Program-made: the position numbers and the translations under genes
Part shown: positions 624 to 34,029 of the stretch, one piece after another
How the letters are laid out: every line of letters starts with the position of its first letter
How positions within the stretch are numbered: position 1 is the stretch's first letter
Notes under the pieces: model-generated
The model's input: only the letters and a program-made list of their open reading frames with translations
What the model was told of the DNA's origin: nothing
Database searches by the model: none
Source of the DNA: a virus
Taxonomy: Duplodnaviria; Caudoviricetes
Strand: one strand, 5' to 3'
DNA length: 34,242 bases
IMG/VR virus record: IMGVR_UViG_3300010398_000024
Location: 1 to 34,242 of that record

Positions 624-889
624 CCGATACCATCCGACGAATGATCGCGCTTGCCGAAGAGTGCGGCCTCAAATACGTGGGCACGCTCGACGGCAAGGCG
701 CATTTCCGGCTCGTGTTCGAGAACGCGCTCGGACAGCGTTTCATCAAACTCGCACCGCATGGCAACGGCGCTGGGAGCAGTGGTCGCAAGATGGCGAACA
801 GCCGCTCCCAGTTTCGACGATTCGCGCGTGGGGAAACCCACGGCCTCTACGTCTTACCCGCGCGGGTAACTACTTCCGGGACCGATTAG
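620..889 (+). CDS. HicA-like small protein (89 aa)
   Basis: ATG at 620 overlaps the upstream TGA. MTDTIRRM...DGKAHFRLVF...SSGRKMANSRSQFRRF resembles the G-x-x-H / S..R...N.R.Q.RR pattern of phage HicA-like proteins. Confidence 0.5.
   Translation: MTDTIRRMIALAEECGLKYVGTLDGKAHFRLVFENALGQRFIKLAPHGNGAGSSGRKMANSRSQFRRFARGETHGLYVLPARVTTSGTD
854..869. promoter_or_regulatory. TTACC-N6-GGTAA palindrome
   Basis: TTACCcgcgcgGGTAA, next to the HNH stop codon. Confidence 0.75.
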
Positions 890-1097
890 CGGTCTTCGAT
901 TCGACCCGCAAATTGGAGCGGGCGTTCGTCCCCCCGGAATCGATCGCCCGCTTGTGATGAACGTCTTTGCCATCACCCTTCTTCACGGTGCCTTCCTTCA
1001 GAAGCTTGGCACGCGCCGCGTTGCGCTGCGCCCGCTGCTTGATGCGCTCGGGCTTGCCGTGAAAAAGCTTGTACTCACGCTTGTAGTCGCGTGCCAT
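870..1097 (-). CDS. Small HNH endonuclease
   Basis: DGKDVHHK...GGTN..SNLRV...ANR HNH signature in a basic 75-aa protein; last gene of the minus-strand operon. Confidence 0.85.
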   Translation of the reverse strand: MARDYKREYKLFHGKPERIKQRAQRNAARAKLLKEGTVKKGDGKDVHHKRAIDSGGTNARSNLRVESKTANRSRK

Positions 1098-1574
1098 TCA
1101 GTGCCCCGGCTGAGCATGCGGCTTCGCTGCCGTATGGGTCGGTGGCGGTGTCGTTGGCGTATCGGCTGCACCAGCCTTGTCGTCGGCCTTCTTGGTCCCC
1201 GGTGCCGGGCCCTGACCTTCGACCACTGCCGTGCGCACGTTGAACATGTCCTTCTCGTCCGAGGTCGCCGTCAAGGAATGCACGGTCTTGAGCGCAACGT
1301 TGCCGCCGTGATTGGCGTCGTCGGCCGAAACCGACATCACCACCGCCGGTACGTTCACGAGATCGCCCACGCTCACATCGGCGCCATTGGCGTCCTTGTA
1401 GGTGGGCGGCGGTGCCGCGGCCGGTTCGGGTGCGGCCTTGGGTGTCGCTGCCGGTTTCGCCTTGGCCTCGGCTGCGGCTTCTTCCTGCGGTCCTGCTGTA
1501 CCAGCAGCCGGCTTGGCTGCGGTTGCCGGGTCGGGTGCTTTGTGAGATGTCGTTTCGGGATGTTGAACAGACAT
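1098..1574 (-). CDS. Hypothetical Ala/Pro-rich protein with a small central beta domain
   Basis: GGAG RBS upstream; abuts the HNH gene; core DANGADVSVGDLVNV flanked by low-complexity arms. Confidence 0.75.
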   Translation of the reverse strand: MSVQHPETTSHKAPDPATAAKPAAGTAGPQEEAAAEAKAKPAATPKAAPEPAAAPPPTYKDANGADVSVGDLVNVPAVVMSVSADDANHGGNVALKTVHSLTATSDEKDMFNVRTAVVEGQGPAPGTKKADDKAGAADTPTTPPPTHTAAKPHAQPGH

Positions 1575-1603
1575 AGCAAGCTCCTTCGTTTAAAGGGTGG
1601 TGA

Positions 1604-4600
1604 TCAGTAATACGACGCGGCCTGCTCGGCCAGTCCCTTGGTCTCCTTGTTGACCTTCACGCCCGCGACGTTCTGGGCCTTCTTCGATGCCGCCAGCGCC
1701 TTCATCAAGGTGCCGCGATCGATCCGGCTCGACGACGGGTTGTGGGAATTGAACTCCTGAATGCGCTCCCACTGCGCCTCGCGGCTCTCGGGCGACGACC
1801 CGACCCATTTCGCAATCAGGCTGCGGCGCTGGGTGTTGTAGCCGCTGACGGCACGATGCACTGCCTGCTCTTGGCTGCGGGCCTCGGCCTCGGCGGCCGG
1901 GGTGAACCCGACCACCCGCTTGATCCGGTCGACCGCGCCGGGAGTATAGCCGTCGGGCTTGGCCCCGCCGAAAATCGCTTCCTTGGTGTCGCGCAGCGCC
2001 TGCGCCGGCATCATCTGCATGCCGCCGTCGATCACGTCGTTGTAGTCGTTGGCGGTGATCATCTTCTTGATCCCGTGCACCGCATCGGCAGCAAGCGAGC
2101 CCGGCGCTCCCATCGCGGTGGTCGCCAAGAACTCCCACGTCGAGGCGTCGTCGTTCTTCTCAGGGAGCCCGTAGGTCCAGAAGCTGTCGAGGCCGAGGCG
2201 ATGGTGCACGTCGACGCCAAACGCAGTCGCGCCCATGCCGTTCAGCACGACGCTGGAAGCGTCCTTGCCGATCGCGTTCGACAAATTCTTCCTGACGCTG
2301 TCCTCGACGTCGTTCCAGTCGCCAGACGTCAGCCCGATCCCCTTGGCGATCCACGCCAGCGCTTTCAACGGCTCGAGCGGCAGGCCCTGTAGCGCGCCCG
2401 CCATCATCATGTGCGCGCCCAACAGCATGCCCAAGGATTTCATCGCTTCGATGCGCTCGTCTTTGGGCACGCCCGGACCAAACGACTTGACCGCCAGCTT
2501 GGCGATCAGGTGGTACATCATCTGCGGGAACTGCTTGAATTGCAGGAACGGGCGAAGATATTTGTTCTTGAACAGCGGCGCGGTGTTGCTCGGCGAGAAC
2601 TTGCCCTGCGTGTCCTCGATGATCTGCCGGGCGTAATTGACCGCACCCTCGTGCGCTTCTGCCGACGACTTACCCGCACGGGTAAGCTTGTCGTACTCGA
2701 GCCGGTAAGCGGTCGACGCACCGACGAACCTATTGATGGCCTCGGTCGCATTGGTGAGATGGCGATACACCGTGTCGACACGCTGCACCGCGCGGTCCAT
2801 CACACCCGACGTTTCATGCGGCAGGTACTTCGAGAATTCATAGCCCGCCTGTGGATGGATCAGGCCCTCCTTGACGAGCTGGCGGAAAAGCTTGGCGAGC
2901 CGCGCCCCGTCGGGCGAGTCTTTGACGGCATCGGCAAACAGGTGCTCGTAATTGGTACCCTTGTGCAGCGCGTCGGCCAGCGACGCCACGAAGTCCTTGC
3001 CGCCCGCTTTGTAGGCGCCACCCAAGTCACGCCACGTCCGCGTCAGCATCGCATAGGTCTTGAGCGCACCGTGCCGACCGGCGATCACCGGCGCGGTTAT
3101 CATCGGCAGATGCGTCTGGCGCAGGATGAGATGGCTGGCGCGGACCATGCGCGCCACATACGAGTACATCATCAGCTTGCGGGTGAATTTCGTGAAGGCG
3201 CCCGACGTCTGGTCGGGGTCGCGCATGGTGAGCCGGCGGTGGATCTCGTTGGCGACTTCGCGACGACGGGCATTGTCCTTGTCGTTGCGATTGGCCTGAA
3301 TGTGCCGCTCCATGTCCTCGGTCAGCTTGTCGAGCTTGGGCGCATAGGCGAGGCGAGCGCGATAATTCGCCTGACCGACATTGTAGGTGTCGAGCACCCG
3401 CGTCACGTCTTCGCTTGCACCGCGCACGTTGCGCCTGACGAGCCTCCTGTGCTGGATGCGGTTGCCCGACTGGTTCCTGATCGACGTCTCGATGATGGTC
3501 TGGCGCATCAGCGCCTTCTGGCCTTCGGTCGCCTTCTGGTAGCCCTCGGTCTGCTCGAGGCGCTTCAAGAGCTGCTTGGTTGCGGCGTTGGTGAACTGCT
3601 CCGACGTGCGCAGATCAGAGCGCTGCTCCTCGGCCCGCAGCTCGTCGAACAGATTGTTGTTGTGCTCCTTCAGATCGCTGACGCGCTGGCGCGCCTGCTC
3701 GGCGGTATCGAACTTCTCGAAATGCTCGCGGTGGACCTGCACCGCATAGCGCTGCTCGGGCTCGGTGCCGTCCTTGGCAACGTCATCCTTGGTCGTCTGC
3801 TTGCCGGTCTTCGGATCGTAGTAGCGGATCTCGGTCTCGGTATGGAGATCGCCGTTTTTCTTGACAGCAAACTCGTGCGCGTCCTTGCGATTTTTGAACT
3901 CCCAAGTGTCATCGCCGATCTTTCGTATCGCATTACCCGGCTCGGTAACTTTGTACTTGCCAACCACGGCGTGATCGCCAAACCGGTCCATCGGAATGTA
4001 GGGGCCCTTGCGCACGATGAGCCGCCCGACGCCCAGCTCGTCCGCTGCCTTCTTGCCCAGCGTCGCCTCGACGCGGGCCCGGTGCTCGCTGTCCATCCCC
4101 GCCTGAATGGCTTCGGTGGCCTTGAAGGCACGCTCCTGAATGCCGGCAAACTCGGGTGCCGCACCGACGATATCCTTGTAGGTGTCCGATAGCTCGGGAT
4201 GCTTCTCGCGCGCCTTCCACTGATTGATCGAGTTCTCGTGGTCGACGTCCTTGGCGCCCTTGGCGAGCTTGGCCTCCATCTCCTTGGACGTGGTGATGTG
4301 CGCATTGCGTCCGACGCCCAGCGGCTGCGAAGCGTCGACGCCGTAGCGCGACTGGTCCATCAACAGCTTGTTGGCTTTCTCCTGAAGCTCGGGATGGGCG
4401 TTGTAGAACTGAGTCAACTCGGCATTGACGTCGTTGAGCGGCTCCATCAGCTCCTTGGCATGCACCGCCTGCTCGTCGTTGACGCGCGAGATCTCGGGCG
4501 CCATCGGCAAGATGTCTTTGTGCCAGTCCGCGACTTGGGCGAAGGTCGAGAGGTTCGACAGTATCCAGCGACTGACGTCGCCCGCTTGCCGTCCCCGTGC

Positions 4601-7600
4601 TGCCGCGGTCGAGATCGCTTTCGACGCCATCGCCGCCGGATTTGTGGCGGCATGGATCATGTCCTTCATGCCCGCCTTGGTGCCGTCCGCGATGTGCTCG
4701 GCAATCGTGCGCATCGTCACCGCTTCGGACGGCTGTGGCGACTGGGCTTCGACCAGCCGGGCCAGCGCCATGCGCTCGCTCCTCTTGGGCGGCAGAGCTT
4801 CGCTCCACAGCGGTTCGTTGCCCTCGGTCTTACCCATGTGGGTAAAGCTGCGGCGGAACGGTGTTTCCTCGCTCAGGTCCTTGGCGAGCGGGCTGATGAA
4901 TTTCTTGGTCTCGGCTTCTGCCGGGGCGCCGATGAACTGACCGACGAAGTCGGGCATGCCGCGCCAGCGTATCTCGGGACGGTAGATGTTGTGCTCGGCC
5001 AGCGCGTCGAACGCTTCTTCGTTGAGGCGGAAGATGCCTTCCATCATCGACGACATTTCGGCAGGCTTGTAGTCGCCGAGCTTTATGTACTTGCGCAGCG
5101 CCGCCATCATGCCGCGGAACAGCGACTTGAACTGTCCGCCATAGGAGAAACCGATCTCCTTGGCGAGCGCATCCGACATCTGGTACTTCGCCAGCATCTC
5201 CTGAAGCCGCGGGTTGGCGAACGCCTCGGCAATGAACTCGCGCACATTGGTGAAGCCGTACTGGCTGCGCGCAATGTCCTCCATCGTCTTGAAGCCGGAT
5301 TCGGGATCGGCCAGCAGCGCCGCCTGCAACTCGCCGGCAATCTTGCCGTAGGCTTCCGCCAGCTTGGGATGGCGATAGGTCAGGTACACCGTCGCCGCGT
5401 GCATCGCTTCGTGCATCACGGTGTGGCGGATCTCGTCGGGCGTATCTTCGTAGCCGATGATGATGGCGTCTTTGATGAGCCCCGGTATCCCGGCCAGCTC
5501 GGGATCGCCCCTGATGTTGAAAGCGACGCCGTTGTAGAACCCGGCGACGCGACCTTCATCGCCGCCCCGGTTATTGGTCAGTGCGCGCATCTCTTCGTTG
5601 CTGACGAAGTAGACCGGCAGATTGCCGATGATCCTCGTCAGCCGGTCGCGCATCACGCCCTCAAACAGGCGCAGGATCGGGTATTGCTTGCTGGCGGCTA
5701 CCAGCTTGGGCAGCACGTCGGCGAGCTTCTGCGGCTTCTTGTCTGCCAGAAGCCGCGCGTAACGCTTGTTGTCGTCGATGAAATCTTCGTGGGTGTATTC
5801 GTGGCTCTCTTCGGCCGGATCGACCTTCGGCACGCGCCGATAGGCCGGCCCGTCGGGCGTTGGCGGCCCGCGCCGTTTCTTTTTGGTCTCGACCATAAAA
5901 GAACCGGTCGAGTCCTTGCCGAGAGTGACTTCGTCGCCCTTTAGCTTGGTGGGTTCGCGCTCGCGGCCTCCACCTTCGACCGCTGCTTCTTCTTCATCGC
6001 TTGCCGCTTCGCTGGCTTCGCGCTCTTGCTTTGCCGAGAGCCGCTCTTCCGGGCTTTCTTCTGTGGGCGCCGCTGCTTTTTCGCCCGGCTTGCCTGCGCT
6101 TTCTTCTGCTTCTTCGCTGCCACCTTTTGCCTCCGCTTTCTTTGCGAGTTCAGCCTCGATCGTTCGCGCCTCGATGATGCGATCGACGTCGGCACGATTG
6201 CCCCTGCGAAGTGCGGCTTCGCGCGAGAGATACTCGTCGAGGTATTTGACTTTCTCGCCCAGCGACTTGTTGGTCAGGCCGCCGCCCTTCTCACGGAATA
6301 AGCGCACAAGTCGACGGGCTTCGGCAAGCATCACCGTCGAGCCGTTATAGGCGTAGCCGGGGTCCATCGCCCTCTTGATCGAGCCGGGCCACTTGTAGCC
6401 GTGGTCCTCGGCCATCTTCACCATCGCCCGCGCACGCTCGATGATGGCGGCACGCGCTTTCTGACCGGACTCGCCGGGAGCGCGATAACGCTTCTCGATA
6501 TCGCTTTCGGGATGGGCGTCGACGATCACCTTTGCCGAGTTGTTGGTGTCGGCACGTTCGGCTTTCTCGGCGAGGGTGCCCTTGTGGCCCTTGCCCTTCA
6601 TCAAGTCGGCCTTGACCGCCTCGACGTCCTTGCCTTCTTCCTTCGCCTTGTCGAGCGCCGCCTGATGCGCTTCGCGCTCGGCTTCGGCCTTGGCACGCTT
6701 GCCGGTGGTCGCTTTCTCCGCCTTGAGCATTTCCTGCCGTGCCCGCTCGGCTTCCTCGTACTTGGCTTTGACCGCGGGATCGGTGACGCGGATCACGGTG
6801 CCGGACTTACCTTCGCGGGTAACACCGGTCTCAGCGGGCTTCTCGGCAGGCGCTTCCTTCTTCGCCTTGGCCTTCTTCTTGAGCTTCTCGCCCACCGTCT
6901 CTTTTGCAGCCGGTGCCGCTTCGGCGGGCTTCTCAGCAGGTGCTGCTTCGGCAGCGGGTGCTACTTCAGCGGGCTTGGCTTCAGCAGCAGGTTCAGCCTT
7001 GGCGCCCGGCTCTTCGGCGGCTCGCGCGTCCTCGCGCGCTTTTAGCGTCTCGGCGGGGTGCTCGACGCTTACGGTAAGGTTCGGATCGCGGCCGATTTCC
7101 GCCGCCTGCTCAGGCACAGTCGAGGGCGTGCCGATCGCAGACTTGACTTCGTTGCCTGCCTGATCGCGCCCGACGACGCCCACAGCTGGCTCGCCAGCCT
7201 GAATCTTTTCTGCGATGTCGGCCTTGTTATACGGGCCGATGCCGATGATTTCATTGATGCGGCCTTCCTGCACCGCCTTGCGCACATCTGCATGCGTAAG
7301 GCCGCTCTTGGGATCGAAATAAACCGCGGCGACGCCTTTCATCCCGCCGCTCGCCCTGAGCATGCCCGCGGGCTGGGGCGGCATGTCGGCCGCCTTGGTA
7401 CCTTTCGGGAACACGACCGCGGCGCGCTGCCCGTTCACAAGCTGTTCTACCTGCGCCTGAAACGCCGACCGGCTCTCGGGCACCGTCGTGCCCTCGGCGG
7501 TTGCGGCGGCTGCGGCAGGCAGTGCCTGCTCGGCGGCAGCGCCAGCAGCCTCTGCGGGCTTCACAGCGACCGTCGGTCCCGCCGTGACATCTGCTCCGGG

Positions 7601-8704
7601 CTTCTTCGCCGCGGGCTCCTGCGCCATCGACGCGGCCTGTGCGCCCGCGTTTCCCGACCGGGGTGGCGTGCCTTGCGACGCCACGTCCCCGGTCTCAGGC
7701 GTGCCGCCGGTCTCCGGTACCGTCGGCGTCTCGGGCGGCGCTACCGGAACCTTCGTGCCGGGAGCTTTCTCCTCGACACCGGGTACCTTGTGCGGCAGGA
7801 CGCCGAACGCGCCACCCATCTCGACGCCGCCGACCACGCCGCTCAGAGCGGCGGTGGCAACCGCGGTGGGATCGAACTGCTTGGACGGATCAAGCACCGA
7901 CTGGGCGTACTGGGTGCCGTATTCGAGCGCGCCCGACTGCACGCCCAAGCCCAAGCCGGTCTCGGCTGCGCCCTCGAGCACCCGGCGCCCGAGCTTCGCG
8001 CCCGCGGTGCCCAATGGGATGCCGAACATCTTGCCGACCGGACCCAGCGTCGTCGCTGCCGCACCGGTGGCGAAATTGATCAGCGGCGAGATCCCCGCCA
8101 TCTTGTCGGCGAGTTCTTGGCGCGCCTCGAACTCCGATGCGCCGTGCTGCCGCGCCGTCTTGTAGATGACGTTGTTCATCAAGTCGGCGTCGGACTTGTC
8201 GTCGAGCATCTTGTAGATGTCGTCCATACCGAAACCGACATTGAGACCGCCGCCGCCCGCAGCGCCCAGCGCAGCACCGATCGCAGTGCCCGCGAGTTCT
8301 TCCGGCGCGGCGTAAGCCGCAGCCGCGGCACCCGCCATCATGGGTGCCATCGACAGACCGCCTAAAAGCGTCGCCCGGATCGGGTGACGCCACCAATCGG
8401 CATCCGTCATGTTCTCCTGAAGCGCGCGGCGGCCTTCGGGCGATACGCCCGTCGCCTGCTCCTGCTCTTCGTAGGTGAAGAACTTCCGCCAAGCGTCGGC
8501 GTTCTGCGCCAGCTCGGGGTCGCTTCGCCCCATGTACTGGATTGCGCTCGCGACCGAGCCGCCCGCCTGCGCGCCGTATTCGGCAAGCGCCTCCGGGTAG
8601 TCCGCCAAGTTACCCAAGAAGGTAGAAGCGTCCTGATCGAGCGTCGGCGCTTGCTGTTCGCCGTAGGCTAGACCGGGTGCGCCTTCGACATAGTCGTCTG
8701 CCAT
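1604..8704 (-). CDS. Giant (2366 aa) internal virion/ejection protein with zincin-like HExxH and PLxRFG-like motifs
   Basis: HTVMHEAMH...EFIAEAF (about 5225-5420) and GPYIPMDRFG (about 3977-4006); N-terminal Gly/Ala hydrophobic segments; last of three ejection-type genes. Confidence 0.8.
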   Translation of the reverse strand: MADDYVEGAPGLAYGEQQAPTLDQDASTFLGNLADYPEALAEYGAQAGGSVASAIQYMGRSDPELAQNADAWRKFFTYEEQEQATGVSPEGRRALQENMTDADWWRHPIRATLLGGLSMAPMMAGAAAAAYAAPEELAGTAIGAALGAAGGGGLNVGFGMDDIYKMLDDKSDADLMNNVIYKTARQHGASEFEARQELADKMAGISPLINFATGAAATTLGPVGKMFGIPLGTAGAKLGRRVLEGAAETGLGLGVQSGALEYGTQYAQSVLDPSKQFDPTAVATAALSGVVGGVEMGGAFGVLPHKVPGVEEKAPGTKVPVAPPETPTVPETGGTPETGDVASQGTPPRSGNAGAQAASMAQEPAAKKPGADVTAGPTVAVKPAEAAGAAAEQALPAAAAATAEGTTVPESRSAFQAQVEQLVNGQRAAVVFPKGTKAADMPPQPAGMLRASGGMKGVAAVYFDPKSGLTHADVRKAVQEGRINEIIGIGPYNKADIAEKIQAGEPAVGVVGRDQAGNEVKSAIGTPSTVPEQAAEIGRDPNLTVSVEHPAETLKAREDARAAEEPGAKAEPAAEAKPAEVAPAAEAAPAEKPAEAAPAAKETVGEKLKKKAKAKKEAPAEKPAETGVTREGKSGTVIRVTDPAVKAKYEEAERARQEMLKAEKATTGKRAKAEAEREAHQAALDKAKEEGKDVEAVKADLMKGKGHKGTLAEKAERADTNNSAKVIVDAHPESDIEKRYRAPGESGQKARAAIIERARAMVKMAEDHGYKWPGSIKRAMDPGYAYNGSTVMLAEARRLVRLFREKGGGLTNKSLGEKVKYLDEYLSREAALRRGNRADVDRIIEARTIEAELAKKAEAKGGSEEAEESAGKPGEKAAAPTEESPEERLSAKQEREASEAASDEEEAAVEGGGREREPTKLKGDEVTLGKDSTGSFMVETKKKRRGPPTPDGPAYRRVPKVDPAEESHEYTHEDFIDDNKRYARLLADKKPQKLADVLPKLVAASKQYPILRLFEGVMRDRLTRIIGNLPVYFVSNEEMRALTNNRGGDEGRVAGFYNGVAFNIRGDPELAGIPGLIKDAIIIGYEDTPDEIRHTVMHEAMHAATVYLTYRHPKLAEAYGKIAGELQAALLADPESGFKTMEDIARSQYGFTNVREFIAEAFANPRLQEMLAKYQMSDALAKEIGFSYGGQFKSLFRGMMAALRKYIKLGDYKPAEMSSMMEGIFRLNEEAFDALAEHNIYRPEIRWRGMPDFVGQFIGAPAEAETKKFISPLAKDLSEETPFRRSFTHMGKTEGNEPLWSEALPPKRSERMALARLVEAQSPQPSEAVTMRTIAEHIADGTKAGMKDMIHAATNPAAMASKAISTAAARGRQAGDVSRWILSNLSTFAQVADWHKDILPMAPEISRVNDEQAVHAKELMEPLNDVNAELTQFYNAHPELQEKANKLLMDQSRYGVDASQPLGVGRNAHITTSKEMEAKLAKGAKDVDHENSINQWKAREKHPELSDTYKDIVGAAPEFAGIQERAFKATEAIQAGMDSEHRARVEATLGKKAADELGVGRLIVRKGPYIPMDRFGDHAVVGKYKVTEPGNAIRKIGDDTWEFKNRKDAHEFAVKKNGDLHTETEIRYYDPKTGKQTTKDDVAKDGTEPEQRYAVQVHREHFEKFDTAEQARQRVSDLKEHNNNLFDELRAEEQRSDLRTSEQFTNAATKQLLKRLEQTEGYQKATEGQKALMRQTIIETSIRNQSGNRIQHRRLVRRNVRGASEDVTRVLDTYNVGQANYRARLAYAPKLDKLTEDMERHIQANRNDKDNARRREVANEIHRRLTMRDPDQTSGAFTKFTRKLMMYSYVARMVRASHLILRQTHLPMITAPVIAGRHGALKTYAMLTRTWRDLGGAYKAGGKDFVASLADALHKGTNYEHLFADAVKDSPDGARLAKLFRQLVKEGLIHPQAGYEFSKYLPHETSGVMDRAVQRVDTVYRHLTNATEAINRFVGASTAYRLEYDKLTRAGKSSAEAHEGAVNYARQIIEDTQGKFSPSNTAPLFKNKYLRPFLQFKQFPQMMYHLIAKLAVKSFGPGVPKDERIEAMKSLGMLLGAHMMMAGALQGLPLEPLKALAWIAKGIGLTSGDWNDVEDSVRKNLSNAIGKDASSVVLNGMGATAFGVDVHHRLGLDSFWTYGLPEKNDDASTWEFLATTAMGAPGSLAADAVHGIKKMITANDYNDVIDGGMQMMPAQALRDTKEAIFGGAKPDGYTPGAVDRIKRVVGFTPAAEAEARSQEQAVHRAVSGYNTQRRSLIAKWVGSSPESREAQWERIQEFNSHNPSSSRIDRGTLMKALAASKKAQNVAGVKVNKETKGLAEQAASYY
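2670..2685. promoter_or_regulatory. TTACC-N6-GGTAA palindrome
   Basis: TTACCcgcacgGGTAA. Confidence 0.75.
3933..3948. promoter_or_regulatory. TTACC-N6-GGTAA palindrome
   Basis: TTACCcggctcGGTAA. Confidence 0.75.
4830..4845. promoter_or_regulatory. TTACC-N6-GGTAA palindrome
   Basis: TTACCcatgtgGGTAA. Confidence 0.75.
6807..6822. promoter_or_regulatory. TTACC-N6-GGTAA palindrome
   Basis: TTACCttcgcgGGTAA. Confidence 0.75.
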
Positions 8705-8705
8705 G

Positions 8706-11700
8706 TCACCCGCTCGGTGGTGTCATCAAGCCCGATGCCTCACTGCCGGTCGGCAATGCGCCGCCCATCGACTCGATGCCGCGGGCCAACTGCCCGACCT
8801 TGTGCGTGAGATAGGCGCCGGTGCCATACGCTGCACCGCGTAGCAGCTTGCCGCCAACGCTTTCACCGCTGCCCTCGAGCGCCTGCTTGGCGCGGTAGTT
8901 CTCGCGGCTCACGCCCGAGCCACGGATCGCAGCGATCTGCCCGAGCATGCCGCGGCCAACGACGAACGTCTCGCCAGTTGCGTTCGAGCGGATGCGATAG
9001 GCGCTGCCGTCCGGCGTCGCGTGGATCGTGTAGCGCTGGTAGTCGCTCGCGCCACCGACGTTCATCAGCAGGTTCGCGTACTCGGCAGACTTGCGCACGC
9101 TCAACCCGTTACGCAGCATCAGATCGCTCATCACGTCCTTGACGCCGTTTTTCTCGCTCAGGCTCAACTCGTGCCAGTTGTCCTTGAGCGTCTTGCCGTC
9201 GGGCCCGGCCACCTGCCACGCCGAACGGAAAGCTGCGTTCGGATTTTGCGGATCGCCCATAAAGTCGTTGACCTTGCCTTCGATATCGCCGGCCTGCTGG
9301 TAGTTGGGCTTCTTCGGACCCAAGCCGCCGTTCTCTTTCCAGTTCTTCAGGTCGAGCAAATAGCCCTGACGCTTGGCGTTGTACTGCTTGATCTCCTCGT
9401 CGTTCATCGCCTTGACCTGCGAGAGCACCGCCTGCCGCTGGCGCGGATCGGTGATGCTCTGCGTCGACGGCGGCACGGTGTAGACCTTGGGTTGGTCGGG
9501 CGGCTTCGGTGCCGTCGCGAGATCTTCCGGCGACACGCCGCGCACATTGAAGCCGCGTTCGAGTGCAGTCGCGCCCTGAAGCGGCTGATCCCACGGACCG
9601 GTCTGCCCGCGCTGCGGTGGCGGCTTGGCCGGTGTTGGTGCCGCTGCCGCTGCGGGCTTACCCGCAGGGGTAACTGGCGCTGCCGCTTGCGGCGCCTTAC
9701 CGACCGGGTTGTCCGATCCACCGTAGTAATTCTTGATCCGGGTCAGCGCCTGCTGGGCGGTGATCTTGTCCGGGTCCATGTTGAGATTGTTCTTGATTGC
9801 GGCGTAGGGCACGCCAGCATCCGTCGCCAGCTGGTTCGGGTTGTCGCGCGCCGCCTTGTAGAGCCGCATAAAGACTCCGACGCCCTGCTGGTGCGCCGCC
9901 GTCAACTCGGCTTCCGTCGGCGGGCGCCGGAGCGCCTTGGTGAGATCACGCTCGTTCTGCTGCAACAGCTTCAGATAATTCTGCGTGTTGGCGAGCGCGT
10001 TGACGCGCGGATCTTTGTCGGTGCCACGATCCTCGATCGGGATCTGCTTGCCGCCGTTGAGCTTGGCCCATGTGTTGTTTTCGATCTGGAACAGGCCACC
10101 CGACACGATGCCGCCATTCTTGCCGCGGCCCATCGCCTTGGGATCGAGATTGCTGCCCTCGCCATAAAGGATCGCCATCGTCACCGCGCGATATTTTGCC
10201 GGGATGATCTTCAGCGCGTCGCGAACCTCCTGCGGCGTATCCGCCGGCAACTGGGTCGGCACCGTCGTCGGCTTGGCGTAATTCGGATCGCGCTGCCCGC
10301 CGGTCCAAAGCAACTGCCCCTTGCTGTTCTTGGTGCGCGGCTTGTTCGACAGCGGGAATTCCTCGTTGTCGTTGCCGTATGAACCGGGAGGCGGCTGCTT
10401 CGCTGGCGGTGCAGCCGGTTTGGCTGGCGCTGCTGCGGCAGCAGGCGGCGTCGGTTTCTGATCTGGTGATCCCACCGTGGTGAGCGACGCGGGCTTCGGC
10501 GATACCGGAGCCGGTGGCGGCGCAGCCGCAGTCGTCGGCGGTGTCGTCGTATCCGTCGGCACCGCTTCCGCGGGCTTACCTCCGGGGGTAACTGGCGCGG
10601 CCGCGCCTGCGGGCGGCGGAGTTGCCCCAGCGGCGGGTGGCGTTGCGGCGGGTGGCGTTGCGGCGGGCGGCGTTGCACCTGCGGCAGGTGCGCTTGGCGG
10701 CGGTGCGGCTGCGGCCCCCGGACCCTGTCCGACATCGGCACCCGGACCTTGATATCCCTGATCGCCCGCGCGCGGACCAGCGTCTGCCGGGATCGCTTGC
10801 GTCGGCGCTGCACCGGGCTTGGCACCGAGCTGGTTCGCCTGCTGCTGGCGGCGAAGATCATCGATGGCATCCTGCGTTGCCTGCGGCAACGGAACATCGG
10901 CGCCTTTCACATTCGAGGCGGCACGCAGCATGCGGTCCCATGCCAGCGACTTGTTCTTGAAGCCGATCGCTGCCGCATAGAGGTCCTGCGGCGATAGCGT
11001 GTGGGTGCCCACATAACGCCCGGTCTCACTGTTGTGCTCATCGACCGTGACCGAGCCGTCTTTGTTGACGCGCGGATTTTCTGCATGCGTGCCCGTCGGC
11101 AGCGGAGCAGCGGCTTTCACCAGTGACTGCGCTGCGGCCTGCGTATCGCCCGTGTTCAAATAGTCGAGCGCGTCCTGACCGTACTGCTCGGCAACACCCG
11201 CCGTGTACTGGATGAGCTGCGCCGCATAGGCGTTGGCTTTCGCCTGATCGCCCTGCGTCATGTAGTAGTCGTAGCCCGCCTTGAACGTCTTGATCATCCG
11301 CATCGCATGCGGCAGTTCGTGCTTGGGATCGACTACATCCATCGCGGCATGCACCGACGCGGGGTCAGCGGCCAAGTGCCCGGAGAGCAGCGCGGCGCGG
11401 CCCTGATCGTTTGATTGGCCTGCCGGTACGGCTTGATCAAAGCCGAACAGCTTGCTCAGGTACTTGATACCGCCATCGAGCACGCGGTGAAGGCTGGTGC
11501 TGCCATCATCGTCGACATCGTCGTCGCCAGCATCAGGCAGAAAACTGGCATCGGGATAGCCGCGCGGATCGCGGCTCGGCGGATAATCGCTGTCGTCACT
11601 GTCGTCCGCCGCGGCAGGCGCGGGCTGTGCTGGCGCGGGCTGCGCTGGCGCGGGTGCTGGCGCGGGCGTGGGCGGCGCAGCATCGGCAGCAGCTTCATTC

Positions 11701-24046: not shown

Positions 24047-25086
24047 ACATGCCACCCTGTCAGCGCGAGAGTTACCCGCTGGGTAACACCAGACCCGGAC
24101 GACACGGCGACACGAATGACATCACCGCCACCGAAATAGGTTCGCGTCCAACCCGTCATGCCGCCCTGTCCTTTGGCAGCGCTCGACGTGTTTGGATAAT
24201 AGCCGCCGACAATGCTGTCGCCGCCGGCAGGATGCGATGTACCGCCATCAAACTGGGCGTAGGTGCAATACTGAACGTCGAGATAGATCGTGCTCGAACG
24301 ATCCGCCAAAACCGTCCAGCCAATGCAACTAAAATTGTACGGCACGAGGAAGTCGACGGCGGCGCCATTTGCTAACGCCGCACCACCGCCATCCAACGTG
24401 ATCTCGAGCGTGGCAAACTGTCGGATCGCCTGTCCGTCGAAGCGCGTCATATCTTCGAGGATGACGCGATTACCGGGATATCCCCGCAGCGTGATGCAGT
24501 CGTTCGACCGGCATGGTAGATCGACTTGGCCGGGTAAAATGTTGGTGGCGTTGTACTGAAGGGTGAAGCCGTCCTGCACGTAGAGCACACGCTTCGCGCC
24601 ATTGGCGAGCTGGACTGCTGTCACCGTTACTGAACCCGTAATGAGCGCGAACTCAGAGGTCACCGCGTCGAGATTGAGGTTTGCCGCAGTAGCGACCACG
24701 GTCTGCGGTTGCTGGGTAAAATTTGGACCATTGGCCCACGCCGTACCGGTCCAAAACTCGACGAGCCCGCTGTCGCTGTTGAAACGGATCTCACCTGCCA
24801 CCGGCGCCGGATCGCGTTGCGCCGTAGTGCCCGCTGGCAAACCAAAACCAGCATTGCCAACCAGCTTGGGATTTCCCACGAGGGTGAGATTGCCACCGAC
24901 GAAAACAAAGTTTGAACCGAGCCCGATTTCCTCGACATTGCCCACGCCTGTGCTTGCGCGCCCGAGCAGAACGTTCGTATCCGACGTCAGAACATGTTCG
25001 TGGTTCCACGCCGACGGCTGCACCAACGTCGGATCAGGACCATCCGCTTTGGGTGAGACGAAGAAGTGCTTGACTGACAGACCCAT
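24043..25086 (-). CDS. Tail fibre-like structural protein (347 aa)
   Basis: SVKH.FVS.K.DG.D..LVQPS.WN..H N-terminus and LPAGTTAQR.....GEIRFN...FW.GTAW fibre motif. Confidence 0.7.
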   Translation of the reverse strand: MGLSVKHFFVSPKADGPDPTLVQPSAWNHEHVLTSDTNVLLGRASTGVGNVEEIGLGSNFVFVGGNLTLVGNPKLVGNAGFGLPAGTTAQRDPAPVAGEIRFNSDSGLVEFWTGTAWANGPNFTQQPQTVVATAANLNLDAVTSEFALITGSVTVTAVQLANGAKRVLYVQDGFTLQYNATNILPGQVDLPCRSNDCITLRGYPGNRVILEDMTRFDGQAIRQFATLEITLDGGGAALANGAAVDFLVPYNFSCIGWTVLADRSSTIYLDVQYCTYAQFDGGTSHPAGGDSIVGGYYPNTSSAAKGQGGMTGWTRTYFGGGDVIRVAVSSGSGVTQRVTLALTGWHV

Positions 25087-26504: not shown

Positions 26505-26520
26505 TTACCCGTGTGGGTAA
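26505..26520. promoter_or_regulatory. TTACC-N6-GGTAA palindrome (intergenic, after capsid gene)
   Basis: TCTTACCCgtgtGGGTAAGA, with 8-bp perfect arms. Confidence 0.8.
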
Positions 26521-26524: not shown

Positions 26525-27511
26525 TTAGTGCGTGACGATCGCCTGCGAAATCGCGATGCCGTCGAGCACCTTGTAGCCGTAGACCTGAAGTCCACGGAGG
26601 ATGGTGCCGAACGTCATCTCGGAACGCAGTGTCTCGACCTTCGAGATCTGGCTGGCAAACGTGAGGCCATGCGCATGACCGGCATAAATAACGCCTTCCG
26701 CCGCTGCCAGTCCCGCCGACGTGCCCTTAGGCAGCAGGTTGGACGTGTAGAGCGTGAAGCGGTCGATCATGCCGAGCCGCCCGTTACGCAGGACGGACAC
26801 GCTGTCACCGGTCAAGTATGCCTGACGCAGATCGGAGAACTTGAGCATCGCAGCCGCCCATGCCGGGATAACCACCCAGCGCCCCTGTTCGGGGATGTTC
26901 TGCTCGTCGAGCGCCTGACCCAGACGCAGGATGAGGTCGAGGATTTCGACCTGACCCGCCGTGGGTGAACGGGCCACGATCGTGAGCGGTGTGCCAGTGA
27001 CGCCAAGATTGATGGTGCCTGAGATCTTGCCCGCGGTCGTCCCCATGTTCGAGGCATTGGCCTGATTGAGGATGCCAAGGAGCACCGCCGTGTCGACGGT
27101 GATCTTGAGCTGCTCGCTCGCGTCGTCGGACCAGATGTTGAGGTTGTTGAGGTCGGACTGCACGTCCATCACATCGTCAAGGATCGTGTTGAAATACTTG
27201 CCTTGATCGATATACAGCTCGACGTTGTTGCCCGACGGGCGCTCGAGAGCGAGCAAGCCGTCAGCCAAGTAGTCGCGGATGGTGATGGTCGGCTTCGTGC
27301 GGATCTTGACGCGATCGCCCTGATTCTTGATCTCGCCCTCGTAATCGGTGTTCGAGATCGCGGCCAGCACCGTCGAGGCGTAGAACTTCTCGATCAGTTT
27401 GCCGGACCAGATTTCAGGGATGAAGCCGGAAGCCTGAAGTGTGTTGCCTGCACCACCGGTCGGGTAAATGGGAGGGGTGGTTGCGGCGCCAGCAATGCCA
27501 AAAGCTGCCAT
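26525..27511 (-). CDS. Major capsid protein
   Basis: FIPEIWSGKL...NTDYEGEI...GDRVKI, LDEQNIPEQGRW and RGLQVYGYKV; follows the scaffold gene. Confidence 0.9.
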   Translation of the reverse strand: MAAFGIAGAATTPPIYPTGGAGNTLQASGFIPEIWSGKLIEKFYASTVLAAISNTDYEGEIKNQGDRVKIRTKPTITIRDYLADGLLALERPSGNNVELYIDQGKYFNTILDDVMDVQSDLNNLNIWSDDASEQLKITVDTAVLLGILNQANASNMGTTAGKISGTINLGVTGTPLTIVARSPTAGQVEILDLILRLGQALDEQNIPEQGRWVVIPAWAAAMLKFSDLRQAYLTGDSVSVLRNGRLGMIDRFTLYTSNLLPKGTSAGLAAAEGVIYAGHAHGLTFASQISKVETLRSEMTFGTILRGLQVYGYKVLDGIAISQAIVTH

Positions 27512-28658: not shown

Positions 28659-28907
28659 TTATTTGCTGCGCGCTTCAAGCTTTTGCGCCAGCTCGTCACA
28701 GTTACCCATGAGGGTAAGAAAATCGGCTGCATGCTTGGCGCGGCCCTGTACCGAGAGCACAACCTCGGGCGCACATCTGACGACATCGTCGCGCATCCGC
28801 TCCGTATGGAGCACCAGCGCCGTCATGAAATTATCCCACTCGCGCGGCGCCGTATGACGAAGCCGCGCAGCGGAACGAATCAGGTCGTCGTCCGGGCCGT
28901 CCTTCAC
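28659..28907 (-). CDS. Hypothetical head-module protein (82 aa); start revised to GTG 28907
   Basis: GTGA coupling; ...QGRA... motif common in small genes between portal and scaffold. Confidence 0.65.
   Translation of the reverse strand: MKDGPDDDLIRSAARLRHTAPREWDNFMTALVLHTERMRDDVVRCAPEVVLSVQGRAKHAADFLTLMGNCDELAQKLEARSK
28702..28717. promoter_or_regulatory. TTACC-N6-GGTAA palindrome
   Basis: TTACCcatgagGGTAA. Confidence 0.75.
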
Positions 28908-29673: not shown

Positions 29674-31808
29674 GGACCTCCACCAATTGCGACCGGCGGA
29701 TTGGGCTGCTGTTGCTGCAAATTCGTCCGCGGTCCCATGTCGCCGGTGACCTGCGGCCCCGGTGTAGTCCCTTGCGCCGTCGGCTGTCCATTGGGTGGAC
29801 CGCCAGCATTGTCGGGCGGTTGCTGCATGTGACCGGGTGCGCCAGCCGCCTGTGCCTGCTCCGCCGCGGCTTTCTGCTGCGCCTGAAGCTGGTCGTCCGA
29901 CGGCACGATGTCTTCGCCCGGAAGCCCGATCGTCGTCGACACGGCGCGCAACACGTTGGCGCGGCCGCGCGGTCCGATGATCTGCATGTCGACCGGGTTC
30001 GCGGTGATCTGCAAGAACTCGAGTTGGCGCGAGCGCTCGGTCTCTTTTTGAAGCGCGACGTTGACGCCGAGCACTTGGACTTTCTCCTCGCCCGACAAGA
30101 GCCCGGTCTGGTCGGTGAGCATGATCAGATCGAAGAGATTTCCGAGCAGCGGATTGTAAATATCGCGATCGATATTCGCGGCGACGGTCTGGAGCACCTT
30201 GCTCGCATTGCCCATCAGCATTGCGAGGCCCGATGCCGTTCGACCGGCGCCGCCAGCGCCCGAGCCTGCAAGGTATTTCGGTATCGCCGAAAGATCGTCA
30301 GCCATCTGGGAGAAGGCTTGGTAGACCGCAAGCAGTTCTTGCGCGTTCGAGTTGGGCTGAAAAAACGTGACCGGTGCGACGGACGATGCCTGCCCCAATG
30401 GGTCCGATGTCATATGCCACCGTTTCCACGGGTACAGGTCATCGCCGTCCTCACCGGGAGACAGGCGGTCCTCCAAGACGACCACCTGCGGCCCCGACGA
30501 GATCGAGAGGTTATTGACGAGCGAACGAAGGGTTGCGTTCGATACGTCTTGGATGTCGGCGAGGATATCAGGTAAGCCGTTGCCGACAGGGGTCCCCGGA
30601 ACCTTCTCGAATGACGTGATGTAGTACGGGTGCCGGCGCCGTGGTGACGGCGAGAACTGCACCTTGATGACGTATTGGCCGAGCAGCTGCGCTTCGACGT
30701 AGTAGTCGCGGTTCTCGTCGGGGATGTTCTTCATCCCCCAGCCCTGAAGCAGCTTGCCCTGACAATTACCTGTGTAGGTAAGCATCGAGAGCATGAACGA
30801 ACGATTGTAGTGTGGGTTCTCGCGGCTCTCCATGACGGCGCGTTCGGCGTCGGTCGTATCCCAGTCCATGTTGATGCCACCCGAACCATAGTCGCGCAGC
30901 ACACTCTGAATCGCGTCCTTGTTGTAGCCGGGCAAATCCAGACAGTCGTTGAGTTCAGCGCGCGTGATGCGCGAACGCTCAATCACCGCCGCGTCCTCGA
31001 TGTCGGCGACGCCGGGCGTGAACCAGATGTCGAACGGGCTTATGCGCTGCCAGCACAACTTGGGCAGCTGCACCGTCGTCGCTTTGCCGTTGTTCCACTT
31101 GACGTCGGGCAGGATTCTGACGATGGGTCCCTTGATGCAGCCAAATGGAAAGATCGGCAGATCGACCAGAAACTCCGCGACGGCTTTGTAGAAGCCACCC
31201 TCTTTCAGAAGCTCGTCGATCTTGTCCTCGGCGATGTTCGCCTGATTCTGCGCTTTACGTTTGGCGGCATCGCGCGCCGCCTCGATCAAATTCATCGTGC
31301 GATCGCGGATCTGGTCGGGCGTCACCTGCGCCCCTGCCTGCTGCATCGTGCCGATCTCGGTCTGGATCAGCTGCATGATCGACTGTTTTATGTTCGGCGG
31401 AATTTCGGGATCGTCCGGCGCCGCTATGCCCCACGCCCGGTCGGGACTGAGATAGACGTCGCGCAGCAAGCTCGTGGCGCCCCGGCACTTCATCGCGATC
31501 AGCCGGGCATAAACCCGCGACCCGCCGAACTTGTCGATCTCCGCCAGCTTGACGGCGTCGTACTCCCCTTTGAACGTCCGCATCGCGGCGAGAAGCCGGT
31601 CCGACCAGCCCGCATTTCCTGAATTGCGATGCCGCTGCATCATGTGGAATTCGGAGCGGATGAAGCCGGCGAGCGACGCCTCGACTTGGTCCTGCACCTG
31701 AAGCGCACGGTCTTCGGCCTGTGCCTTCTGGGTCGCAATGTCGCTGAGCTGCTGGTTCATCGACGCGGGGCCGACGACCCGCAAGACTGCGCTGCCCGGT
31801 GCGCTCAC
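29670..31808 (-). CDS. Portal protein
   Basis: 712 aa, first gene of the virion operon; PFDIWF, PGTPVGNGLPDIL.DIQ...N, RTASGLAMLMGNA and Gln/Pro-rich tail. Confidence 0.85.
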   Translation of the reverse strand: MSAPGSAVLRVVGPASMNQQLSDIATQKAQAEDRALQVQDQVEASLAGFIRSEFHMMQRHRNSGNAGWSDRLLAAMRTFKGEYDAVKLAEIDKFGGSRVYARLIAMKCRGATSLLRDVYLSPDRAWGIAAPDDPEIPPNIKQSIMQLIQTEIGTMQQAGAQVTPDQIRDRTMNLIEAARDAAKRKAQNQANIAEDKIDELLKEGGFYKAVAEFLVDLPIFPFGCIKGPIVRILPDVKWNNGKATTVQLPKLCWQRISPFDIWFTPGVADIEDAAVIERSRITRAELNDCLDLPGYNKDAIQSVLRDYGSGGINMDWDTTDAERAVMESRENPHYNRSFMLSMLTYTGNCQGKLLQGWGMKNIPDENRDYYVEAQLLGQYVIKVQFSPSPRRRHPYYITSFEKVPGTPVGNGLPDILADIQDVSNATLRSLVNNLSISSGPQVVVLEDRLSPGEDGDDLYPWKRWHMTSDPLGQASSVAPVTFFQPNSNAQELLAVYQAFSQMADDLSAIPKYLAGSGAGGAGRTASGLAMLMGNASKVLQTVAANIDRDIYNPLLGNLFDLIMLTDQTGLLSGEEKVQVLGVNVALQKETERSRQLEFLQITANPVDMQIIGPRGRANVLRAVSTTIGLPGEDIVPSDDQLQAQQKAAAEQAQAAGAPGHMQQPPDNAGGPPNGQPTAQGTTPGPQVTGDMGPRTNLQQQQPNPPVAIGGGP
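30766..30781. promoter_or_regulatory. TTACC-N6-GGTAA palindrome
   Basis: TTACCtgtgtaGGTAA. Confidence 0.75.
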
Positions 31809-31866: not shown

Positions 31867-32340
31867 ATGAACACAATGCCGCTCTCGCCCTTCCCGCCGG
31901 AAGACGGCCCGATGCTGAGCCTCGCCCGCTCGGTGGCGATGGACCTGCAAGAGCTGGACGACATCCTCAAGGCCCACCAGCTCAGCTACGAACAATGGGC
32001 GGAAATCGCGGCAAATCCCCGCTTCCAAGCCTTCCTGAAGTCGGCGGTGGAAGACTGGAACAAGCCGATGAACACGCCGGAGCGCATCAAGCTCAAGGCG
32101 CTCGCGATGGTCGAACTCGGGCTCGAGGAAATGTGGAAGCAGCTGCACAGCGATAAGGAGCCGCTGACCGCCCGCGTCGAGCTTTTCAAGACCATAGCCA
32201 AGATGGGGGCAGTCGACGTCGAGAAGCGCGTCGATGAGGGCGGCGAGAAATTCTCTGTCGTAATAAATCTCGGCTCCGATCAACTTCGGGTCACCGCACC
32301 CGCCTTACCCGCGAAGGTAATCGATCTGGACGACCACTGA
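31867..32340 (+). CDS. Probable terminase small subunit
   Basis: 157-aa helical protein coupled (TGATG) to the large terminase; C-terminal FSVVINLG strand. Confidence 0.65.
   Translation: MNTMPLSPFPPEDGPMLSLARSVAMDLQELDDILKAHQLSYEQWAEIAANPRFQAFLKSAVEDWNKPMNTPERIKLKALAMVELGLEEMWKQLHSDKEPLTARVELFKTIAKMGAVDVEKRVDEGGEKFSVVINLGSDQLRVTAPALPAKVIDLDDH
32305..32320. promoter_or_regulatory. TTACC-N6-GGTAA palindrome
   Basis: TTACCcgcgaaGGTAA. Confidence 0.75.
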
Positions 32341-33788
32341 TGCAGACGATCACTTATGACGCGCCGCCAACCGTGGCGCGCTTCATGAAATCGGAGAGCT
32401 TCTTCCGGTTGATTGCCGGCCCGGTGGGATCGGGCAAGACCACGGGATGTATTTTCGAGATCCTGCGCCGAGCTTGCGAGCAGCCACCGGGCTCGGACGG
32501 GCTCAGACACACCCGCTTCGCGATCGTGCGGCAGACGCTGAAGCAGATCAAGGACACGATCCTCAAGGACATCATGAGCTGGCTCGGCCACGTCGCCGAC
32601 CACAAGGTCTCCGAGAACACGGTGTATATTACGTTCGGCGACGTGCGCAGCGAGTGGCTGCTCATCCCGCTGGAAGACATCGAAGACCAGCGTCGGCTCC
32701 TGTCCTCTCAGCTGACCGGTGCTTGGATGTCGGAAGCGATCGAGATGGACGTCGAACTCGTGGCCGCCATCGCCGGCCGCTGCGGGCGTTACCCGTCAGG
32801 CGCCCGCGGCGTGCCCCACTGGTTCGGCGTCATCGCCGACACCAACTTCCCCTCAATCGGAAGCGCTTGGCACACTGTGATGGAAATTTCTGTCCCAGCG
32901 GACTGGCAGGTCTTCCAGCAACCCGGCGGGCTCGAGCCCGATGCCGAGAACCTGAACTGGCTCACCCAGACCGAACAGACGCTCAAGCTCGCCCTCGACC
33001 ACCCGGCACGCATCGCGCAGGGACGCCTCTACTACGAGCGGCTCGCACGCAGTAATAACGTGGACTGGGTGCGCCGCTATGTGCACGCGAAATACGGCGA
33101 AGACCCCTCCGGCACGGCAGTCTTTCGCGAGTCGTTCAAGCACTCGTTCCACGTCGCCGCCGAAGGTATCGAACCGGTACATGGTCACCCGCTCGTCGTG
33201 GGGCAGGATTTTGGACGAGACCCGTGCTCGCTCATTTGCCAGTGCGATCACCGCGGCAGACTTCTCGTCCTTGCTGAAGTCGTCGCGATGGACATGGGGC
33301 TCGAGAACCAGCTCAAGCTGAACCTGCTCCCCGAACTCCGCACCGAGCGCTACATGGCGAAGCCGGTGCTCGTCGTGGGCGACCCCGCGGGCGCTGCCAA
33401 GTCGACCCACTACGAGGAGACCTCGTTCGACCTGATCAAGCGTTGCGGGCTCAACTGCATGCCGGCGCCGACCAACGATCTCGATCCCAGACTCAGAAGT
33501 GTCGAGGCGCTTCTCGGTCAGCAGATCAACGGAGGCGCCGCCCTCGTCATCGACGGGCAAAGATGCCCCATGCTCGTGCGCGCCCTCGACGGGGCATATC
33601 GTTATGGCAAGACCCGTGACGGCAAGCGCCGCCCCGTGCCCGACAAGACCCACCCCTTCAGCGATCTGGCGGATGCTCTTCAGTACGTATGCTTGGCGGT
33701 GCACGGCGGCCTCGTGATCAAGTTCTCCGGCTCGATGCTACGCCCGACCCGCACCCCGAAAGTAATCCCCGTCGGCGCTTGGACTTAA
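32340..33788 (+). CDS. terL: Terminase large subunit
   Basis: Walker A GPVGSGKT, Walker B-like AWMSE, DTN coupling motif, nuclease acidic residues GQDFG, GDPAG and SDLADALQY. Confidence 0.93.
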   Translation: MQTITYDAPPTVARFMKSESFFRLIAGPVGSGKTTGCIFEILRRACEQPPGSDGLRHTRFAIVRQTLKQIKDTILKDIMSWLGHVADHKVSENTVYITFGDVRSEWLLIPLEDIEDQRRLLSSQLTGAWMSEAIEMDVELVAAIAGRCGRYPSGARGVPHWFGVIADTNFPSIGSAWHTVMEISVPADWQVFQQPGGLEPDAENLNWLTQTEQTLKLALDHPARIAQGRLYYERLARSNNVDWVRRYVHAKYGEDPSGTAVFRESFKHSFHVAAEGIEPVHGHPLVVGQDFGRDPCSLICQCDHRGRLLVLAEVVAMDMGLENQLKLNLLPELRTERYMAKPVLVVGDPAGAAKSTHYEETSFDLIKRCGLNCMPAPTNDLDPRLRSVEALLGQQINGGAALVIDGQRCPMLVRALDGAYRYGKTRDGKRRPVPDKTHPFSDLADALQYVCLAVHGGLVIKFSGSMLRPTRTPKVIPVGAWT

Positions 33789-33840
33789 TGTTCCAATCGC
33801 TTAAGAGAAAGGAAATCATTGGGGTTTTAGGTTTACTTAG

Positions 33841-34029
33841 TTACGAGTCGGGGGTTACCCACAATCTTGTTTTTGGCTTGTTTTCGGCTTGTTTTTTGCC
33901 CGAAAGGCGCCGGCGAAATCCACGACGCCGGCGCCCGCTCGTATGAGGGGAATGCTTTGCTTTACCGGGCCTCCTTCTTTGGGGCGCGGGCGGAATTACC
34001 CGCAACGGTAAGCTTAAGCCCGCGATCAC
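33841..34029 (-). CDS. Possible small basic ORF (uncertain)
   Basis: GTGA overlap with the J-domain gene stop, but atypical composition running into the AT-rich patch. Confidence 0.3.
   Translation of the reverse strand: MIAGLSLPLRVIPPAPQRRRPGKAKHSPHTSGRRRRGFRRRLSGKKQAENKPKTRLWVTPDS
33866..33897. repeat. Three CTTGTTTT direct repeats with an exact 11-bp period
   Basis: Copies start at 33866, 33877 and 33888. Confidence 0.8.
33996..34011. promoter_or_regulatory. TTACC-N6-GGTAA palindrome
   Basis: TTACCcgcaacGGTAA. Confidence 0.75.

Follow-up and report, generated by a model that had tools for sequence, protein, structure and literature searches.

A genome-wide palindrome array in soil podophages related to Rhizobium phage RHph_TM29 and gp28 as its candidate reader

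Cluster A mycobacteriophages carry 20–30 repressor-binding sites (stoperators) across their genomes, most of them away from promoters and one upstream of the repressor gene (PMC6550527, PMC9283540). These sites are asymmetric and oriented with transcription; most occupy short gaps between genes, and a helix-turn-helix (HTH) repressor binds them as a monomer (PMC6550527, PMC9283540), in genomes laid out as two converging arms with a central integrase or par cassette and the repressor in the early arm (PMC6550527). Cluster O mycobacteriophages, which are without lysogeny, have more than 30 interrupted palindromes of 17 bp, many in genes, most off promoters and denser at one end of the genome; they are predicted to bind a dimer, but their function is given as unknown and no reader is named (PMC4351075). 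Here we analyse an array of the palindrome TTACC-N6-GGTAA in a 34,242-nucleotide viral sequence (IMG/VR record IMGVR_UViG_3300010398_000024; 'the window' denotes this whole stretch) and propose gp28, a gene of related phages, as its candidate reader.

The Cluster O repeats are the closest look-alike of this array, both being sets of at least 30 dyad repeats spread genome-wide within and between genes and denser at one end. They differ in sequence, with 7-bp arms and a 3-bp spacer where the highest-ranking spaced palindrome of the window is TTACC-N6, and in host phylum and virion type; the part of the Cluster O account cited here says nothing of even spacing or protein recoding (PMC4351075). 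An earlier note on the window saw no match of its motif to L5 stoperators or to matS, SBS, NBS and parS. The motif does have a precedent: the seven annotated repressor sites of Salmonella phage epsilon15 (GenBank AY150271.2) have the same TTACC/GGTAA arms around an N5 spacer, likewise dispersed over a temperate podophage. However, epsilon15 has 12 N5 matches and no N6 match, all 12 intergenic and clustered at control regions, against 18 N6 copies to one N5 copy in the window, 14 of the 18 intragenic. No homologue of epsilon15 Rep was found in the RHph_TM29 (TM29) family (best tblastn E 0.79 over 14 sequence sets; PF01381, HTH_3, below cut-off in 5/5 genomes); the XRE-type repressor SPC32H Rep has sites like those of epsilon15 (bioRxiv 2021.09.07.459249). 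The array is not a member of the L5 or the epsilon15 system, and the word that it shares with the epsilon15 operators is likely to be convergent. Cluster K start-associated sequences are also short repeats over ribosome-binding sites, as at many TM29-family junction sites; they are non-palindromic, lie nearly all 3–7 bp ahead of a start codon and accompany non-structural genes only (PMC3203893). A further paper concerns another phage family (PMC8631192), and an acquired repressor has been reported in a phage (PMC12700041). We found no description of the motif or its phage family in titles and abstract openings.

A selected array of palindromes in the window

A motif count on the window recovered all 18 exact copies of TTACC-N6-GGTAA listed in the earlier note, each at its coordinate, together with a single-mismatch copy and a copy with an N5 spacer (Table 1). 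When spacers of 0–20 bases were tried between the same arms, N6 gave 18 matches, N5 one and every other length none. The spacer begins with a pyrimidine in 18/18 copies and ends with a purine in 16/18. The GC content is 61.2%, slightly below the 63% or so estimated by eye, and 100 dinucleotide shuffles of the window contained no match, in agreement with the excess over chance first claimed. The copies are evenly spread, with gaps of 897–3180 bp (mean 1950, coefficient of variation 0.35); none of 20,000 uniform placements was as even. Since Logan contigs of one soil run, which may be its source, match long pieces of the window with 0–3 differences, the window is not an assembly artefact of repeats. 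We conclude that the palindromes are real, strongly selected DNA sites.

Most sites are intragenic, as the earlier note had it: 14 of the 18 lie in coding sequence and four at gene junctions, counted on a list of 33 open reading frames (ORFs). Across 1000 synonymous-codon shuffles we obtained a mean of 0.17 sites and a maximum of 3, compared with the 14 observed. Almost every spot in the window's proteins that is able to encode a site carries one (14/15), and the peptide that results from the most frequent reading frame, [FLIV]-T-x-x-G-[KN], has 13 occurrences where 1.3 are expected. G013, a relative free of the motif, has this peptide once, with 2.1 expected. The deficit in synonymous shuffles, the near-complete use of permissive spots and the roughly tenfold peptide excess that is absent from G013 together show that protein sequences have been altered to hold the DNA word. 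The selection behind the intragenic sites thus acts on DNA, not on protein, and this, if right, would be an unambiguous example of virion proteins reshaped by selection at the DNA level.

The array across the phage family and in host DNA

Matches to PHROG and Pfam (capsid, portal, terminase, tail fibres, large internal virion proteins and the end of a primase/helicase) identify the window, by homology, as the virion arm of a podophage of about 61 kb related to TM29. The closest isolates are Rhizobium phages RHph_TM3_14A, TM27A, TM27B and TM29 (60.9 kb). A capsid–portal–terminase tree of 22 sequences placed the window within the motif-bearing clade, against G013 and G028, with support 100, a placement that holds at the level of the clade. 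The family comprises 731 clusters at 50% identity and is common in soil. The ten runs listed as holding the window are soil metagenomes, one with all window words and most with small shares, and there were no RNA runs among them.

TM29 has 25 exact N6 sites and 46 sites of the form TTACY-N5/6-RGTAA. Using a relaxed site, T[TA]AC[CT]-N5/6-[AG]GT[TA]A, and seven other spacers for comparison, we counted 19–56 sites per near-complete relative, against 1–6 for the seven other spacers combined; G013 and G022 had none and G028 had one. Among 80 capsid-seeded viral loci there were 256 N5/6 sites and 45 at the seven other spacers, and of the 41 loci of at least 10 kb, 24 had at least three sites and eight had none. 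The family accepts both N5 and N6 spacers. A 34-kb fragment of a genome of about 61 kb could not itself carry the claim that the array is genome-wide, but complete relatives hold sites over their full length.

The positions of intragenic sites shift between relatives, as the giant virion gene has 31 sites at 25 alignment columns in 11 genomes. No site lies in the capsid and terminase genes of 12 genomes, and six of the 12 have one upstream of the terminase large subunit gene (TerL). Density peaks in the small early genes (0.7–2.1 per kb), is intermediate in replication genes and reaches its minimum in the virion arm (0.03–0.6 per kb), the fall from early genes to virion arm being seen in 7/7 genomes. 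Spacing in the virion arm is regular (P<0.05) in 7/10 genomes, and gaps under 0.3 of the mean number 6/114 where 26% are expected.

The inner base pair of 229 pooled N6 sites (C-A 50, T-A 74, C-G 39, T-G 33) follows independence, and mismatched arms are common, notably in prophages. We therefore take the unit to be a half-site on double-stranded DNA and not a hairpin; a model of RNA or single-stranded DNA hairpins is ruled out by the lack of covariation between arms. Host chromosomes outside the phage hold three sites in 8.7 Mb and three in 7.9 Mb, equal to the counts for spacers 7–8, which argues that the reader is likely to be phage-encoded and leads us to reject both a host regulon and avoidance by the host. 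The sites parS, matS, SBS and NBS organise host chromosomes; no host enrichment of that type was found for the motif in the same 8.7 and 7.9 Mb. The absence of stem covariation, the under-dispersed spacing and a phage rather than host origin of the reader all favour the suggestion, made from the sequence at the outset, that the sites serve a DNA-binding dimer and are not the usual operators of promoters. That second half holds for most sites, which lie away from promoters, but not for a subset upstream of gp28, which overlap a promoter-like sequence and do resemble ordinary operators.

A motif-first scan returned 125 loci, and the 13 with at least three sites comprised seven of the TM29-like family and six unrelated AT-rich contigs (30–43% GC). 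Three AT-rich viral contigs outside the family (L256, L268, L302) have four relaxed sites in 5–6 kb. Distant capsid relatives (L098, L100, L096, L061, L076, G028) are enriched in other spaced palindromes (TTGCT-N6, ACTAC-N1, TTAAC-N4, TATTC-N3, TGTCA-N9, TTGAC-N4), at 3–10 copies per locus. We set aside CCGG-N5 and GGACC-N4 'palindromes' in G013 and other loci as probable period-9 collagen-like coding repeats.

gp28 as candidate reader and the role of the array

The gene gp28 of TM29 (EVB31_028, QIG67038.1; about 245 aa) heads the early arm. It is present in all eight near-complete motif-rich genomes (TM29, G001, G005, G006, G007, G010, G011, G012) and in prophages G002–G004, and absent from G013 (0 sites) and from 18 genomes with more distant capsids (0–1 sites per locus). 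Nor did it turn up in several fragments or in G014 and G024, two partial records with contigs that end before its region. A site accompanies 65 of 69 gp28 loci and, once duplicates are dropped, lies at most 350 bp upstream of the gene in 43 of 46. In 11 of 54 upstream sites a TTG stands exactly 17 bases ahead, so that the site itself contains a −10-like hexamer; this −35 peak is missing at 234 intragenic and 150 other junction sites. Upstream sites thus often overlie a predicted sigma70-like promoter of gp28. A plain promoter scan of the TM29 early region stayed at shuffle level. Among other candidate readers, gp61 (winged HTH), gp49, gp53 and gp62 each lack a member in one or more of the motif-rich genomes, and an excisionase-like gene and the TM29 HTH genes gp44 and gp56 are patchy.

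The gp28 protein is predicted, at high confidence, to be all-helical, with an N-terminal domain bearing a conserved basic helix and a C-terminal hairpin (predicted local distance difference test scores 93 and 94). It has no Pfam, PHROG, PDB sequence or fold match and may represent an unlisted family. Matches in BFVD were confined to family members and those in ESM Atlas to unnamed viral clusters, where DUF3102 (at 0.85 and 0.82) offers a weak lead. In our reading gp28 probably binds the site, through the conserved basic helix.

Copies of gp28 also stand alone among bacterial genes. They are 139–141 aa long, comprise only the N-terminal domain, have no other family gene nearby and are flanked by ABC-transporter, TctC, SelR and glyoxalase genes. 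Three of them (L413, L417 and L420; Table 1) have one perfect site each, 37, 48 and 85 bp upstream, in three upstream regions that cannot be aligned, against a background of one match over 14 other spacers in 43.9 kb; divergence among the stand-alone copies is biased to third codon positions. In L420 a second site spans the stop codon of the gene. The contigs are 1.5–6.5 kb long. Searches of IMG/VR, of plasmids and of 401 Xanthobacteraceae or Rhizobiales genomes, taken in three draws, yielded no such copy. Host capture of a phage regulator is a possible origin.

We propose, as a tentative reading to which we give about even credence, that gp28 is a dimeric reader and non-canonical repressor and that the array silences the whole phage genome in the manner of L5 stoperators. 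gp28 would be made first and would bind as a dimer, one subunit per half-site, with 5 or 6 bases between them tolerated. By occupying the site that covers its −10 element, gp28 would shut off its own promoter. Junction and intragenic sites, tiled at intervals of 1–2 kb, would stall host RNA polymerase as roadblocks and so keep a prophage or superinfecting phage silent; granted that gp28 binds, such a silencing function for the remaining sites seems to us somewhat favoured. Even spacing would follow if a new site is most valuable, and hence kept, where none is near, and sites may arise at least cost, over a stop codon and ribosome-binding site or in flexible codons.

The analogy with L5 stoperators drawn in the earlier note is upheld in that same-motif sites occur genome-wide, mostly off promoters. 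Shared with Cluster A are the many sites per genome, the position of most of them away from promoters (no −35 peak at the intragenic ones), a site upstream of the candidate repressor gene in the early arm, and converging arms around a central integrase or par cassette. The TM29-family site differs in being palindromic, evenly spaced, of N5 or N6 and mainly intragenic, and gp28 has no Pfam or PDB match, where an L5-type repressor has an N-terminal HTH and a Stoperator domain.

Lysogeny is evident in parts of the family, whose genomes have two converging arms separated by an integrase or par cassette. G002 is an integrated prophage that encodes a serine recombinase, and a 17-bp repeat marks its two junctions, which lie about 61 kb apart. 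That repeat (G002:C111:25003 and G002:C166:25141) includes one motif half-site and covers a host gene's start together with its ribosome-binding site. G003, flanked by host genes on either side, encodes a tyrosine integrase, and G012 and G014 match PF00589. In G006 (G006:C320:194-1984, L198), ParA, ribbon-helix-helix (RHH) and HTH_36 genes occupy the integrase position of relatives, making it likely to be a plasmid-type prophage. The integrase-like ORF of G001 is unconfirmed, the scan having covered its first 175 aa only. No integrase was found in TM29, G010 or G011, or in the window between the primase and the virion arm; an alternative place, past TerL, lies outside the window. The 'putative integrase' annotated in TM29 (MN988463.1:42227-45310; L082:11227-14310) is a DUF927 primase/helicase, and the attL and attR features of that record fall inside other genes. 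No Cro/CI domain was above cut-off in five genomes or in the 61 of 88 TM29 proteins scanned. Since a number of relatives are prophages, integrated or plasmid-like, in which no CI-type repressor was found, gp28 is likely to be the repressor.

Several observations weigh against gp28 as reader and repressor. The window holds no gp28 region, its early arm lying outside. No DNA-binding fold was recognised in gp28: Foldseek gave no match and VIA best Z scores of 7.0 (hairpin) and 6.6 (N-terminal domain), with no fold assigned. AAA ATPase, VWA-peptidase and gp55-like genes co-occur with the motif equally well. Shared descent confounds the co-occurrence of gp28 with the motif, and the set of gp28 loci, gathered by means of the conserved helix, contains some redundancy. 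G022 encodes a divergent gp28 (G022:C1:137-763, L356; E 9e-9) whose basic helix is altered; it has no site in its 24.8 kb, and no replacement palindrome was found there. Four stand-alone copies cut at the 5' end lack an upstream site, and a captured fragment would carry its upstream site along without any binding. For L5 itself, plain steric block has been argued against (PMC9283540), and the divergent portal/terminase promoter region of the window has no site. Finally, the integrase-less complete genomes TM29, G010 and G011 are the richest in sites (51, 56 and 53), which is unexpected if lysogeny were the sole use, and provirus G012 has 24 sites, only one in its 30-kb virion arm.

Because the integrase-less relatives have the most sites, the main job of gp28 could instead lie in the lytic cycle, where it would cover the incoming genome, loop it or compact it into a phage chromatin, or else label it as self against nucleases of the host or of phages, while regulating only its own promoter. 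We find this possible though doubtful. Even spacing with free positions, several sites per gene, the density gradient and the place of gp28 at the head of the early arm suit such a function, a C-terminal helical hairpin could oligomerise, and the dyad repeats of Cluster O sit in phages without lysogeny (PMC4351075). However, prophages need a repressor and none other was found, the site over the promoter is operator-like, density may merely track the number of gene junctions, and no known nucleoid or partition protein was found to resemble gp28 in structure. Further still, and in our view unlikely, gp28 could be a new fold of sequence-specific DNA-binding protein that tiles the whole phage chromosome at a selected spacing, as a phage chromatin inscribed in coding sequence, its DNA-binding domain and operator having been captured by soil bacteria as a defence that jams these phages.

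Another phage protein might read the sites: the AAA ATPase/VWA-peptidase module, the gp55-like gene before the DNA polymerase, or an ejected virion protein. These genes match the distribution of gp28 in complete genomes, G022 has a gp28 homologue yet no sites, and the 2366-aa virion protein has a DarB-like match. We nevertheless consider it improbable, since only gp28 retains the site when alone among bacterial genes, a promoter-overlapping site was found only there, and the gp61, gp49, gp53 and gp62 families fail on distribution as described above.

The distances between sites are in the range of Okazaki fragments, a symmetric site can act on either strand and half of the 12 genomes have a site before TerL, all of which would suit replication or packaging signals, such as priming hairpins for the primase-helicase every 1–3 kb or terminase sites. 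Common mismatched arms without covariation speak against this very improbable role, as do the primase and small terminase of motif-free G013, and it leaves the density gradient and stand-alone gp28 copies unexplained; no evidence turned up for the packaging or ejection role that the earlier note had raised for the array. A host regulator or epsilon15-type XRE repressor is scarcely credible despite the arms shared with epsilon15, given background motif counts in hosts, no Rep homologue, HTH_3 below cut-off and the wholly intergenic, N6-free epsilon15 sites.

The proposal of gp28 as candidate reader is new here and gives this new variant of genome-wide operator arrays a testable reader. Genome-wide phage palindrome arrays such as the Cluster O repeats have so far had no known reader or function. 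A cultured phage (TM29 on Rhizobium phaseoli), sequenced Bradyrhizobium strains with relatives and one named gene make the question directly testable. If the proposal is true, gp28 would bring a DNA-binding fold not seen before, would supply the repressor of a common family of soil phages without CI and may have given rise to a host-captured mini-repressor.

Features of the window and minor observations

Table 1 Sites and genes of the window, with stand-alone gp28 genes (locus coordinates)
Feature	Position	Strand	Context
Primase/helicase C-terminus	3..623	+	Closes the early arm; remaining early arm (gp28 region in relatives) outside window
Site	854..869		3' end of 82-aa ORF 641-889(+), peptide L-P-A-R-V; adjoins stop of ORF 870-1097(-), where two transcription arms converge
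2366-aa virion protein	1604..8704	-	C-terminal match to DarB-like PHROG
Site	2670..2685		Within 2366-aa virion gene, L-T-R-A-G-K
Site	3933..3948		Within 2366-aa virion gene, V-T-E-P-G-N
Site	4830..4845		Within 2366-aa virion gene, F-T-H-M-G-K
Site	6807..6822		Within 2366-aa virion gene, V-T-R-E-G-K
One-mismatch copy	8610..8625		Codon 27 of 2366-aa virion gene
Site	9658..9673		Within 1222-aa gene (transglycosylase-like match)
Site	10576..10591		Within 1222-aa gene
Site	11809..11824		Within 1222-aa gene
Junction site	14123..14138		Between stop codon and acetyltransferase gene start
Site	16690..16705		Within small ORF 16536-16763(-), I-T-R-V-G-K
Site	18219..18234		Within ORF 17813-18301(-)
Site	20442..20457		Within tail-fibre gene 18545-20638
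Junction site	23325..23340		Spacer contains upstream stop codon and next gene's ribosome-binding site
N5 copy	24072..24086		3' end of ORF 24043-25086(-)
Junction site	26505..26520		Directly past major capsid stop; site present there in 6/12 relatives
Major capsid protein	26525..27511	-	74% identity to RHph_TM29
Site	28702..28717		Within conserved ORF 28659-28982(-), L-T-L-M-G-N
Site	30766..30781		Within portal gene
Putative small terminase	31867..32340	+	Assigned by position
Site	32305..32320		3' end of ORF 31867-32340(+), 20 bp ahead of TerL start; site at this column in 5/12 genomes
TerL	32340..33788	+	53% identity to RHph_TM29
Site	33996..34011		Intergenic, TerL end / DnaJ-like ORF end
Stand-alone truncated gp28	L413:1476-1951
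Stand-alone truncated gp28	L417:405-894
Stand-alone truncated gp28	L420:483-1016

Two neighbouring tail-fibre genes of the window (18545-22563) have similar N-termini, Peptidase_S74 domains and low GC (52–57%), and positions 18955-20284 are mostly uncovered in four runs. In G004 (G004:C4) the phage is present in two tandem copies about 61.9 kb apart on one contig of a metagenome-assembled genome, which may be a duplication or an assembly effect. The early region of TM29 (MN988463.1:15862-37713) contains about a dozen small paralogous genes with an A-M-A-M-L-L-G-like peptide, and G001 and G012 have similar sets.

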